Of a stretch of 64,000 bases of DNA, positions 60,350 through 63,823 are shown in pieces. Below the pieces are notes generated by a model, which saw only the letters and a program-made list of their open reading frames with translations, was not told the DNA's origin and searched no databases. Position numbers and translations under genes: made by a program. Within the stretch, counting starts at the first letter, position 1. Each line of letters opens with the position of its first letter. The stretch comes from Escherichia coli (GTDB lineage Bacteria > Pseudomonadota > Gammaproteobacteria > Enterobacterales > Enterobacteriaceae). Where the stretch lies: the NCBI RefSeq assembly GCF_003019035.1, contig NZ_CP027447.1. One strand, written 5' to 3'.

Positions 60350-60500
60350 GTTTATTACTCCCTTTAATGTCTGTTTCCGAGCATTTAACAAGATAGTCCT
60401 TAACAACTTCTTAAGGGAAAAAAATAAAATTTAATGCTGTACAGAGCGCGTTACAACACGGTTTACTGGCAGCAAATACGGTTATCGCAGGGATGAAAAA

Positions 60501-62506: not shown

Positions 62507-62513
62507 CTTCTCT

Positions 62514-62550
62514 GTCTATGAGAGCCGTTAAAACGACTCTCATAGACTTT
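62514..62550 (+). terminator. rho-independent terminator downstream of qseC
   Basis: gtctatgagag / ctctcatagac 11-bp perfect stem followed by ttt. Confidence 0.6.
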
Positions 62551-62551
62551 A

Positions 62552-62884
62552 CTAATAGCAAAATATAAACCGTCCCCCAAAAAGCCACCAACCACAACCC
62601 AGACAAATAACGAGCGAGAATACATATAGCCAAAACTCGAACATTTCCCGCATAAAGAGTTTTCTTAAGATAAGAATAATAAGTGGCGTCAGAAGAAAAA
62701 ATGCTGCAATCATTGCTTGCAATATACGATCTTCGCCTGAAACGGAAGGTATACTGCAAATATTGTCTCCCGACTCAAGCATCCAGTCATACTTATTGAA
62801 AGCAAAAAAAGCATCTATTAACCAATAAGTAAGCATTATGTATAACAGAGCTTCAAATATTGTTTGAATTTTATGCTTTAACAT
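62552..62884 (-). CDS. ygiZ: small inner membrane protein
   Basis: 110-aa hydrophobic ORF. Confidence 0.8.
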   Translation of the reverse strand: MLKHKIQTIFEALLYIMLTYWLIDAFFAFNKYDWMLESGDNICSIPSVSGEDRILQAMIAAFFLLTPLIILILRKLFMREMFEFWLYVFSLVICLGCGWWLFGGRFIFCY

Positions 62885-63241
62885 ATGTTAGCACTCTCTA
62901 AAAAAGTCCAGTCGGAGATCTGGTTTTCGATACCCTCCAGTAAATCTATTTAAAATAATCTGCGTAACACGCTGATATTTTCATTTTTAGTTATTCAACA
63001 CCACAATTATCAACTCGCAGAAAGTCCACACCAACGTTGTAAATTAACCCTGTGCTAGTTGGAATGATGAGAAATTGCTATCAGTATTGTCATTTTCAGA
63101 AAATATTTATCCCGCATCGGTGAATCAGAGCAAGATCAGACTTTTGCTAAATTCGCAAAAGACTTTGCACATTTTGCTAATTTCACCGTACCGCTCTGTG
63201 ACGTACTATAGTCGGTAAACGTCTCACCTTGAGGTTAAAAA

Positions 63242-63823
63242 ATGAGCAACATCCTGATTATCAACGGCGCGAAAAAATTCGCCCACTCCAATGGTCAACT
63301 GAACGACACCCTGACCGAAGTCGCGGATGGCACACTGCGCGACCTCGGGCATGATGTCCGCATCGTTCGCGCCGACAGCGACTACGATGTCAAAGCGGAA
63401 GTACAAAACTTTCTCTGGGCTGATGTGGTGATCTGGCAGATGCCAGGCTGGTGGATGGGCGCGCCGTGGACAGTGAAAAAATACATTGATGATGTATTCA
63501 CCGAAGGTCACGGGACGCTGTATGCCAGCGATGGTCGTACCCGCAAAGATCCGTCGAAAAAATACGGCTCCGGCGGCCTGGTACAGGGCAAAAAATATAT
63601 GCTTTCTCTGACCTGGAACGCACCAATGGAAGCCTTCACCGAAAAAGATCAGTTCTTCCACGGCGTTGGTGTTGACGGTGTGTACCTGCCGTTCCATAAA
63701 GCAAACCAATTCCTTGGCATGGAACCGCTGCCGACATTTATCGCTAATGACGTGATAAAAATGCCTGATGTTCCCCGCTATACTGAAGAATATCGCAAGC
63801 ATCTTGTGGAAATTTTTGGTTAA
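63242..63823 (+). CDS. mdaB: NADPH:quinone oxidoreductase
   Basis: 193-aa ORF MSNILIINGAKKFAHSNGQLN. Confidence 0.95.
   Translation: MSNILIINGAKKFAHSNGQLNDTLTEVADGTLRDLGHDVRIVRADSDYDVKAEVQNFLWADVVIWQMPGWWMGAPWTVKKYIDDVFTEGHGTLYASDGRTRKDPSKKYGSGGLVQGKKYMLSLTWNAPMEAFTEKDQFFHGVGVDGVYLPFHKANQFLGMEPLPTFIANDVIKMPDVPRYTEEYRKHLVEIFG

Follow-up and report, generated by a model that had tools for sequence, protein, structure and literature searches.

We analysed the DNA upstream of mdaB in a stretch of 64,000 nucleotides from Escherichia coli (contig NZ_CP027447.1), which we call the window. The genes discussed here (qseC, ygiZ, mdaB, and ygiN) were identified from the RefSeq annotation of a strain that is 100% identical. 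The features of this region are:

62507..63137, no strand: variable cassette with ygiZ (62552-62884, minus strand), outside the mdaB control element (megablast, 5426 genomes)
63140..63163, plus: upstream element ATTaTTGC-N7-GCAAAAGAC, with the dyad TTGC-N7-GCAA (column conservation in 81 sequences, best 80 loci; position weight matrix, or PWM)
63141..63161, no strand: perfect 7-bp inverted repeat CTTTTGC-TAAATTC-GCAAAAG (sequence reading, repeat search)
63142..63154, plus: distal direct-repeat copy TTTTGCTAAATTC (repeat search)
63164..63183, plus: putative main marbox, forward, tttGCACatTttGCTAATtt, with core 15-mer GCACATTTTGCTAAT at 63167-81 (consensus search, PWM, conservation)
63172..63184, plus: proximal direct-repeat copy TTTTGCTAATTTC, spanning the main marbox's spacer and RE2 and running into the predicted -35
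63175..63183, plus: extended -10-like TGCTAATTT, coinciding with RE2 of the marbox; possible promoter P2 (published K-12 start site 7 nt downstream, at 63190)
63182..63187, plus: predicted -35 of mdaB promoter P1, TTCACC (conservation of TT.ACC, 16-bp spacer, 2-bp overlap with the marbox)
63204..63209, plus: predicted -10, TACTAT, which is TAAAAT or TAGAAT in other genera (conservation)
63216..63217, plus: predicted P1 start, a conserved CA (TA in the window), 7-8 nt past the -10
63242..63823, plus: mdaB (NADPH:quinone oxidoreductase), the regulated gene, with ygiN next (list of open reading frames, RefSeq annotation of the identical strain)

The initial annotation described a 7-bp palindrome and a recurrence of its motif about 60 bp before the start of mdaB, and both are there. 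Reading the sequence and a repeat search confirmed perfect arms (CTTTTGC at 63141-47 and GCAAAAG at 63155-61) around the 7-nt spacer TAAATTC; at 85% identity, the arms can be extended to 13 nt (63138-50 and 63152-64). The two direct-repeat copies lie 30 bp apart and match at 12 of 13 positions with no indel, and 58 bp separate the end of the proximal copy from the mdaB ATG at 63242. To see how unusual this is, we shuffled the 357-bp spacer (62885-63241) 1000 times with its dinucleotides preserved. A perfect inverted repeat of at least 7 bp with a loop of 3-10 was present in 17% of the shuffles, a direct repeat of 13 nt (one mismatch or none, within 40 bp) in 0.8%, and both together in 0.1%. 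So the palindrome alone is unremarkable, but the combination is not. Overall, the observation is real but largely ordinary.

These features had been assigned to a ygiZ/mdaB divergent region, which does not hold across strains. The 104 bp from 63138 to 63241 accompany mdaB in 5425 of 5426 complete E. coli genomes (megablast, at least 95% identity), while the DNA to the left, on the ygiZ side, is polymorphic or absent. O157 and other strains are without the ygiZ cassette, and in DA61218 a segment with Hcp and type VI secretion (T6SS) genes takes its place. In the ygiZ-less strains, the 44 bp at 63140-83 are unchanged and begin 1-7 bp after the qseC stop codon. The same is true of the position of this block in about 72 of 80 genomes from other species (best 80 loci). 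Because the element is unchanged in strains without ygiZ, we conclude that it belongs to mdaB, not to ygiZ or qseC.

It is scarcely credible, then, that the element controls ygiZ, for instance as the BglJ-RcsB site of a divergent ygiZ promoter. According to PMC3950696, BglJ-RcsB does activate ygiZ via a site in this spacer, but the centre of that asymmetric motif is 65-68 bp upstream of the ygiZ start site, and the palindrome is 257 bp from the ygiZ ATG. Also, a core-motif scan found no exact wwTTCykA in 63138-63241; the sole copy in the spacer is at 63096-63103. And the block is identical in species that have no ygiZ.

A conserved 44-bp block

We aligned 81 sequences from Enterobacteriaceae, in which the other-species loci are the best 80 from a scan of genome contigs. 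The 44 bp at 63140-83, ATTaTTGC-N7-GCAAAAGACTTTGCACATTTTGCt.ATTT, are nearly invariant in the 81 sequences (best 80 loci). More precisely, positions 63140-47 and 63155-83, the predicted -35 and -10, and the CA are near-invariant, while neighbouring positions of the spacer are randomised. In these sequences, the two arms of the palindrome (TTGC and GCAAAAG) and, in the proximal copy, TTTTGC are invariant or almost so.

The perfect symmetry is another matter. Only about 7 of the 81 sequences (best 80 loci) have all 7 bp, with C at 63141 in 7 and T at 63143 in 8, and these are mainly Escherichia and Salmonella. Similarly, only in Escherichia does the distal repeat copy include TAAATTC; elsewhere in the alignment it keeps just its TTTTGC or TTATTGC part. 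Thus the features that were first noticed are present, but the 13-nt repeat and the 7-bp symmetry in its perfect form are specific to lineages (largely Escherichia and Salmonella). What is conserved is TTGC-N7-GCAA and the marbox. The main evidence for a functional element is this conservation, not the palindrome itself.

Could the palindrome instead act in RNA, as a hairpin that terminates or stabilises the 3' end of the qseBC transcript? The position is suggestive. In most species the hairpin is directly 3' of qseC (1-7 nt past the stop codon in ygiZ-less genomes; best 80 loci), and in Salmonella a preB-mdaB co-transcript was not detected by RT-PCR (PMC2653508). Folding gave inconsistent stabilities across six sequences. 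The S. diarizonae sequence folds better than its shuffles (z = -2.8), but z was between -1.3 and +0.6 in most species: the E. coli hairpin has a minimum free energy of -9.1 kcal/mol (z = -1.26), Enterobacter has z = +0.61, and the most stable Klebsiella fold ignores the arms. For most genera, an A.A mismatch interrupts the stem after 4 bp (best 80 loci). The arms never vary among the 81 sequences (best 80 loci), which leaves no compensatory changes, and the complementarity of the spacers is weak (1 of 3 pairs above shuffles). A terminator scan found no terminator-like site, and the stem is not followed by a U-tract. In E. coli with ygiZ, the element stays with mdaB, 630 bp from qseC, which has its own 11-bp hairpin. 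Finally, Rfam gave no significant match (a sub-threshold hit to MicA had 24.6 bits and E = 0.23). An RNA hairpin or terminator is therefore very unlikely, and we rejected it.

A second idea comes from the neighbouring qseBC genes. Over-expression of PreA (QseB) in Salmonella raises mdaB by 7-fold on arrays and up to 32-fold by qRT-PCR, and the authors hypothesised a PreA site (PMC2653508). The direct repeats, which lie near the promoter, might be that site. Direct repeats near a promoter are also what a QseB/PmrA box is, but its sequence and spacing (CTTAA-N6-CTTAA; PMC5053249) differ from those at mdaB. Our repeats are spaced by 30 bp, not 11 bp. No such box was found in 62885-63241 at up to 2 mismatches, although the positive control in the ygiW-qseB spacer (60399-60414) is perfect. 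Moreover, the 3' half of the distal copy is not conserved in the 81 sequences (best 80 loci). The strain used for the induction had preAB deleted but the preAB promoter intact, so read-through may be an alternative cause. We consider a QseB site behind the induction of mdaB-ygiN highly improbable.

The predicted promoter and a putative proximal marbox

From conservation, we infer a promoter (P1) with its start at 63216/17. The six columns of its -10 are T in 80, A in 81, variable, A in 54, A in 75, and T in 81 of the 81 sequences, and the columns of the start are C in 74 and A in all 81 (best 80 loci). A promoter consensus scan did not report P1, which scores just 8/12, as expected for an activator-dependent promoter. 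The nearest published K-12 start sites correspond to 63190 and 63142, not 63216/17. (The first is position 3170500 of U00096.2 in S2 Table of PMC12052159; we converted it with an offset of 3107310, checked against the mdaB start in NC_000913.3.) The site at 63190 would fit the TGCTAATTT motif as a second promoter, and from it the main marbox would be at -16. Within this motif, 63179 is A in 35 of the 81 sequences (best 80 loci).

We then compared the block to known binding sites. At 63164-83, GCAC-N5-TGCTAAT fits the marbox consensus AYnGCACnnWnnRYYAAAYn at 12 of 14 specified positions, and the proximal repeat copy is its RE2 half. A match to this degenerate consensus proves nothing by itself, because the window has 13 matches and 18 are expected, that is, no enrichment. 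Instead we relied on conservation and on a PWM built from 32 MarA ChIP-seq sites (PMC5684230 Table 1). With this PWM, 63167-81 on the plus strand scores 14.0 bits and ranks second among 127,972 positions (the median true site scores 13.2). The comparison to a matrix for MarA, one of the stress regulators that the initial annotation had suggested, gives a strong match at the proximal site. Within 45 bp, there are further matches among the top 45: 63163-77 (minus, 10.2 bits), 63142-56 (minus, 9.6), and 63146-60 (plus, 9.4).

The NsrR operator is reportedly an 11-1-11 inverted repeat of AAnATGCATTT, and no half-site with up to 2 mismatches to this consensus occurs in 63100-63241, which speaks against the suggestion of NsrR. 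The MarR-type consensus is TTGCC-N2-GGCAA and the soxbox consensus is AN2GCAYN7CWA; at the set thresholds neither of these has a match (the soxbox reaches 6/8). By eye, we saw no fit to the consensuses for sigma-54, CRP, FNR, Fis, IHF, PurR/CytR, SdiA, Ada, DnaA, or an UP-element.

The marbox core is separated from the conserved -10 by 22 bp, and its centre is at about -43 from the predicted start. A class I marbox has the reverse orientation and is about 20 bp further upstream. By the class II convention, a forward marbox overlaps the -35 (PMC12052159). The mdaB site resembles the class II promoters fumC, micF, nfo, sodA, and inaA (and lpxL P1 and rfaY P1 in PMC12052159) in several ways: it is asymmetric and 20 bp long, with GCAC one turn away from RYYAAAY, it is forward and would overlap a weak predicted -35, and the gene functions in redox or drug detoxification and is induced by MarA, SoxS, Rob, or RamA. 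But it differs from them in that another marbox-like element lies directly next to it, 21 bp upstream, and in that MarA ChIP-seq in ETEC did not detect it. Also, across the family, mdaB shows variation at RE2 positions 15-16 but none at the flanking and 'n' positions (best 80 loci). The marRAB marbox (ATGCCACGTTTTGCTAAATC; ChIP 15-mer ccacgttttgctaaa) is another useful comparison, as the mdaB repeat motif TTTTGCTAAAT is identical to its spacer and RE2 (PMC5684230 Table 1). However, the mar marbox is class I, reverse, and centred at about -62, whereas at mdaB the distal copy is without RE1 and the proximal copy reads GCTAAT.

Both 15-mers, GCTAAATTCGCAAAA of the distal element and GCACATTTTGCTAAT of the main marbox, are already known as predicted mdaB marboxes (S2 Table of a 2025 paper, PMC12052159), and mdaB is documented in the literature as a gene of the mar/sox/rob/RamA regulon. 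It is called a member of the mar regulon in PMC2989944, which cites Martin & Rosner 2002; over-expression of marA induces it (PMC9948449); deletion of ramA in Salmonella lowers it 3.2-fold (PMC3139621); and MdaB protein rises 8.4-fold under vanillin stress, which was attributed to MarR/MarA (PMC6561319). A caveat is that mdaB is absent from the 33 MarA ChIP-seq peaks in ETEC H10407; the authors state that most known marboxes favour SoxS or Rob (PMC5684230). The ChIP-seq paper on Salmonella says nothing of mdaB, in the main text or in the supplement.

The distal element and a possible second regulator

The second conserved element, 21 bp upstream, resembles a marbox and also a LysR-type dyad. 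Its dyad, TTGC-N7-GCAA (T-N11-A in form, with a variable N7), is centred at 63151, or about -66 from the predicted start. It is marbox-like in both orientations (GC-N7-GCAAAA): within the window, the palindrome (63143-62) scores 9.4 bits on the plus strand and 9.6 bits on the minus strand. The median of the plus frame is 9.5 bits across the 81 sequences (best 80 loci), and 0.04% of window positions attain this. The GC cores at 63146, 63155, 63167, and 63176 are spaced by 9, 12, and 9 bp, as in two abutting 20-bp marboxes. As a marbox, however, the palindrome has only GC for RE1; the A and C/T positions (63148-49) and the T ahead of RE2 (63154) are free to vary in the 81 sequences (best 80 loci). 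In the frame 63137-51, the distal copy scores merely 4.3 bits because RE1 is missing.

The initial annotation viewed the palindrome as the operator and the recurring motif as an additional half-site. It was right to see a regulatory region at the mdaB promoter, and the family that it named (MarA, SoxS, and Rob) gives the best match. The hierarchy is reversed, though: the proximal "half-site" belongs to a complete marbox that scores best, and the palindrome is the one without a proper RE1.

The main marbox itself is nearly invariant in the 81 sequences (best 80 loci), but not in the way that MarA binding predicts. The 'n' positions 63166, 63171-72, 63174-75, and 63183 are invariant, while the informative RE2 positions 63178-79 vary (A in 35 and C in 38; best 80 loci), and hence the median of the forward site across species is only 8.3 bits. 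The pattern of conservation does not fit a pure MarA-type constraint. Together with the dyad, which is conserved as strongly as the marbox, this suggests that mdaB may have a second input.

The upstream dyad, or perhaps the whole block, might be the operator of a different regulator with a LysR-type architecture, acting with or instead of MarA, SoxS, or Rob. We consider this unlikely on balance but plausible enough to set out. The idea follows from the dyad at -66 and from invariance across the block at positions that MarA-type proteins do not read. The layout would be TGC-N7-GCA (T-N11-A) at about -66 and, 21 bp from it, a weaker dyad at about -45, TTGC-N7-GCTA (63165-79). This is the textbook placement of a LysR-type RBS and ABS, as given in the introduction of PMC2724274, and the symmetric arms show no variation whereas the 7 nt between them are free (81 sequences, best 80 loci). 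MarA-critical positions of the upstream element vary in the same alignment. In addition, four TTGC/GCAA tetramers (at 63144, 63155, 63165, and 63174) are spaced by roughly a helical turn; at least four occur in 0.2% of 44-bp windows, a statistic that is post hoc. There is even a precedent, since Neisseria mdaB is activated by the LysR-type CrgA via two T-N11-A sites (PMC2724274).

The comparison goes only so far. Like LysR-type regions (a T-N11-A RBS at about -65 and an ABS at -45/-35) and CrgA at the Neisseria crgA-mdaB spacer, the E. coli locus has an interrupted dyad at about -66 (4-bp arms, 7 bp between them) and, 21 bp further downstream, another, imperfect copy of it; here too the regulated gene is mdaB. 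No cognate LysR gene lies adjacent or divergent: the neighbours qseC, ygiZ, ygiN, and parE include no LysR-type or other candidate regulator. The literature that we searched reports no such regulator of mdaB in enterobacteria, and the arms are unrelated to any site that we can name. Also, the dyad is just 5/8 symmetric in most genera (best 80 loci), and TTGC-N7-GCAA is not above chance in the window (3 observed, 2.9 expected). The likeness to LysR-type sites is a resemblance of form only.

Other than a LysR-type tetramer with RBS/ABS geometry, a second regulator could be an AraC/GyrI-type protein such as STM3175 (YgiV). STM3175 is encoded four genes away and is strongly induced by PreA/QseB.

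Proposed control of mdaB-ygiN

Our preferred reading, to which we give a probability of roughly 60%, is that the palindrome and the repeat both belong to a single cis-regulatory block for mdaB-ygiN, with a proximal class II marbox and a distal auxiliary site. The proximal half would be a forward marbox with GCAC (RE1) and GCTAAT (RE2) one helical turn apart. A monomer of MarA, SoxS, or Rob (in Salmonella and Klebsiella, RamA) would bind at the -35 and recruit or pre-recruit RNA polymerase, and mdaB would be switched on under redox-cycling, drug, or aromatic-acid stress. The distal half, TTGC-N7-GCAA(AAG), has its centre at about -66, two turns (exactly 21 bp) further upstream. It would combine a strong RE2-like GCAAAA and a truncated RE1 (GC only) with their mirror image on the other strand, and it may serve as an auxiliary site on the same face of the DNA that aids the complex of activator and polymerase. 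The 13-nt direct repeat would be a by-product of having RE2-type marbox sequence (tGCTAAAt) in both halves in Escherichia.

The mdaB-ygiN genes, for a pair of quinone reductase and quinol monooxygenase, belong to the MarA/SoxS/Rob/RamA programme of intrinsic stress and drug tolerance. The placement of the marbox, and a promoter that travels with mdaB across an insertion hot spot (for ygiZ or the Hcp/T6SS segment), tidy the annotation of the locus. The point of some value is the upstream dyad, which poses a modest question and is no surprise for the field. A second regulator of mdaB-ygiN on the 44-bp block, a rather doubtful prospect, could add a quinone or envelope signal to the input from MarA, SoxS, and Rob. 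If it exists, the overlap of TGCTAATTT (start at 63190) with the marbox could also give E. coli an activator-driven switch between promoters.

The repeats upstream of mdaB and the gene they belong to

According to the ORF list, the end of the window contains the E. coli genes qseB-qseC-ygiZ-mdaB-ygiN. The RefSeq-annotated strain SCU-301 is 100% identical to the window across the 357-bp ygiZ-mdaB spacer (62885-63241). The initial annotation described an inverted repeat and a direct repeat in this spacer, and both the sequence itself and a repeat search show that the description is accurate. The palindrome (63141-63161) and the DNA downstream read aga CTTTTGC TAAATTC GCAAAAG actttgcaca TTTTGCTAATTTC, and the arms extend to 13 nt at 85%. 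The copies of the direct repeat (63142-63154 and 63172-63184) are 30 bp apart and match at 12 of 13 positions. In 1,000 dinucleotide-preserving shuffles of the spacer, a perfect inverted repeat of at least 7 bp arose 17% of the time, a comparable direct repeat 0.8% of the time, and both together 0.1% of the time. So, the palindrome by itself is unremarkable, but its combination with the direct repeat is not.

We compared the spacer with 5,426 complete E. coli genomes by megablast. Its last 104 bp (63138-63241) are the sole universal part, found in 5,425 of these genomes at 95% identity or above. In K-12, O157, and the other strains examined, the 104 bp are the same as in the window, except for T vs. 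C at 63216. (The window strain has the T. K-12, O157, and 74 of 81 listed enterobacterial sequences have C, which is the first base of a conserved CA.) Left of 63138 is a variable cassette (62507-63137), which lies between the qseC stop codon and the mdaB promoter block and has three states in E. coli:

State 1: ygiZ, with two alleles that are about 87% identical to each other
State 2: an Hcp/type VI secretion segment in place of ygiZ
State 3: no cassette, as in O157:H7 and CFSAN018748, and also in E. albertii and Salmonella

The region 62507-63137 is thus a hot spot for insertions and ends abruptly on the right, at 63137/63138. In the cassette-less strains (O157:H7 and others), the qseC stop codon is 5 bp ahead of AGACTTTTGC. 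Similarly, among the best 80 mdaB loci from a scan of one genome per species, a long QseC reading frame ending in ...GGFEAKVSW stops 1-7 bp ahead of the conserved 44-bp block (63140-63183) in about 72 of 80 genomes. Because the constant segment starts at 63138 and the DNA to its left is variable, the palindrome lies at the far left of the constant promoter segment of mdaB. It is part of an mdaB control element, not of one that ygiZ and mdaB share.

We rejected several other explanations. An RNA hairpin or qseBC terminator does not fit: a terminator scan found no terminator-like site; in most species, the sequence folds no better than its shuffles do (z of -1.26 for E. coli and +0.61 for Enterobacter); the arms never vary among the listed sequences, with an A.A mismatch after 4 bp in most genera; and the element remains with mdaB despite the 630 bp inserted after qseC. 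Rfam gave only a sub-threshold match to the MicA sRNA at 63062-63145 (24.6 bits vs. a gathering score of 41; E = 0.23 for 851 bases), which is probably due to chance. (The match spans the whole model, and its end falls in the palindrome's left arm.) Separately, an 11-bp perfect inverted repeat with a 12-nt loop (GTCTATGAGAG / CTCTCATAGAC, 62514-62547) lies between the convergent genes qseC and ygiZ and may be a bidirectional terminator that arrived with the ygiZ cassette; its loop size kept it from being flagged by the scan.

In Salmonella, PreA over-expression induces mdaB, and a binding site was proposed (PMC2653508). We rejected a QseB/PreA site, as the QseB/PmrA box CTTAA-N6-CTTAA (PMC5053249) is absent from the spacer even with up to two mismatches. 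As a positive control, the ygiW-qseB spacer has a perfect direct repeat of this type (CTTAACAACTTCTTAA, 60399-60414). That experiment used a preAB deletion retaining the PreA-activated promoter (PMC2653508), so read-through is a simple alternative, and one that agrees with finding no terminator. BglJ-RcsB control of ygiZ was also rejected, as the published site is 65-68 bp from the ygiZ start (PMC3950696). The only exact match to the BglJ-RcsB core (wwTTCykA) in the spacer is in the variable cassette (63096-63103, minus strand) and is a candidate for that published site.

The predicted main marbox and the upstream dyad

The best 80 mdaB loci include Escherichia, Salmonella, Citrobacter, Klebsiella, Enterobacter, Kluyvera, Leclercia, Raoultella, Kosakonia, and other genera. 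With AAAAGACTTTGCAC as the anchor, no gaps are needed to align their upstream regions. The alignment of the 81 listed sequences gave this profile:

63140-63147: ATTaTTGC, then seven unconstrained positions (63148-63154)
63155-63177: GCAAAAGACTTTGCACATTTTGC, then t, A/C, and ATTT (63180-63183)
63182-63187: TT.ACC, then a 16-bp variable spacer, TAnaAT (63204-63209), and CA (63216-63217)

We interpret TT.ACC as the -35 of the predicted main promoter, P1, TAnaAT as its -10, and CA as its start. The E. coli hexamers (TTCACC and TACTAT) score 8/12, which is under the threshold of a consensus promoter scan, as expected if P1 depends on an activator.

The proximal half of the block contains the main marbox, a predicted binding site for MarA, SoxS, or Rob:

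63164-63183, same direction as mdaB: tttGCACatTttGCTAATtt, matching 12 of the 14 specified positions of AYnGCACnnWnnRYYAAAYn

With up to two mismatches, this degenerate consensus is not enriched in the window (13 matches vs. 18 expected). It is uninformative alone, so we built a matrix from 32 MarA ChIP-seq sites (Table 1 of PMC5684230). At 14.0 bits, 63167-63181 ranks second of 127,972 window positions and exceeds the median for true sites (13.2 bits). Of the regulators that the initial annotation suggested, the MarA/SoxS/Rob family was the best match, and NsrR was rejected because no half-site with up to two mismatches was found in 63100-63241. That annotation also proposed a regulator's operator with an additional half-site near the promoter. 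A putative regulator-binding region is there, but the promoter-proximal site is the complete one. It overlaps the predicted -35 by 2 bp, and its centre lies about 43 bp ahead of the predicted start, which gives a predicted class II arrangement (forward and over the -35, by the convention of PMC12052159).

The marbox and regulon membership are already in the literature. mdaB was named as a member of the mar regulon, citing Martin & Rosner 2002 (PMC2989944), and is induced by marA over-expression (PMC9948449). Deleting ramA in Salmonella lowers mdaB 3.2-fold (PMC3139621), and vanillin stress raises MdaB protein 8.4-fold (PMC6561319). GCACATTTTGCTAAT is one of the predicted mdaB marboxes in S2 Table of PMC12052159.

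Three more matches to the matrix, all within 45 bp, are among the window's top 45:

63163-63177, minus strand: 10.2 bits
63142-63156, minus strand: 9.6 bits
63146-63160, plus strand: GCTAAATTCGCAAAA, 9.4 bits (also in S2 Table of PMC12052159, so both 15-mers were already predicted)

The upstream forward frame has a median of 9.5 bits across the 81 listed sequences, which would place it among the highest 0.04% of positions in the window. GC cores are at 63146, 63155, 63167, and 63176. Their spacings (9, 12, and 9 bp) fit two abutting 20-bp marboxes 21 bp apart, which favours reading the upstream dyad as an auxiliary site that resembles a marbox, lies two helical turns upstream, and is centred around -66.

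Several observations argue against a purely MarA-type reading. In the upstream element, 63148-63149 (A, C/T in MarA sites) and 63154 (T) are unconstrained in the listed sequences. The "n" positions of the main marbox do not vary, but 63178-63179, in its second recognition element (RE2), do (A in 35, C in 38), so the median for this marbox across species is only 8.3 bits. And mdaB is not among the targets reported from MarA ChIP-seq in ETEC, although those authors state that most classical marboxes prefer SoxS or Rob (PMC5684230). The main rival explanation is that the dyad, and perhaps the whole block, binds a second regulator, distinct from MarA, SoxS, and Rob. Another way to view the block is as four TTGC/GCAA tetramers spaced by about one turn (just 0.2% of 44-bp windows have at least four), and the T-N11-A dyad (TGC-N7-GCA) at -66 with a weaker TTGC-N7-GCTA at -45 is a LysR-type layout. 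In Neisseria, mdaB is the target of a LysR-type activator, CrgA (PMC2724274). But no candidate regulator is encoded nearby or was found in the literature searched for enterobacterial mdaB, and we consider this explanation rather unlikely.

The perfect 7-bp symmetry (C at 63141 and T at 63143) is present in only 7-8 of the 81 listed sequences, mainly from Escherichia and Salmonella; TTATTGC is the left-arm form in most genera. As for the distal repeat copy, its TAAATTC portion shows no conservation among the listed sequences. The perfect symmetry and the 13-nt repeat are lineage-specific by-products of having RE2-like sequence in both halves of the block. In four Kluyvera loci (L048, L062, L072, and L082, around 1425-1445), RE2 of the marbox is replaced, so that GCACATTT is repeated in tandem and the sequence reads TTTGCACATTTTGCACATTTAA. 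Entomohabitans (L028) has an intact upstream dyad and a degraded marbox (GAAC, TTATTAGC). So the marbox and the dyad can change independently. What remains novel is the family-wide invariant dyad at -66.

Transcription starts and a possible second promoter

A palindrome, ACCT-TG-AGGT (63226-63235), overlaps the Shine-Dalgarno sequence of mdaB in Escherichia only, and its conserved part is the Shine-Dalgarno itself. It has the form of the MqsA palindrome, ACCT-N(2-4)-AGGT. Farther downstream, a published K-12 transcription start (U00096.2 3171102) falls at 63792, in the 3' end of mdaB, which runs to 63823. Two predicted marboxes lie directly downstream of it, which suggests an internal promoter for ygiN.

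In the list used by PMC12052159, the nearest K-12 starts are U00096.2 3170500 and 3170452, which correspond to 63190 and to 63142, within the palindrome's left arm. (The conversion offset is 3107310; both the NC_000913.3 mdaB start, minus 1978, and a second marbox row, for ygiN, confirm it.) These differ from the predicted start of P1, but the table gives only the start nearest each marbox, so a start at 63216/63217 is compatible with it. TGCTAATTT (63175-63183) reads as an extended -10, and 63190 is 7 nt after it. E. coli may therefore have a second promoter (P2) with a -10 that coincides with RE2 of the marbox and would be occluded by the activator. Position 63179, the critical -11, is an A in just 35 of the 81 listed sequences, so P2 cannot be the conserved promoter. 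In E. coli, the overlap of P2 with RE2 would make promoter switching possible.
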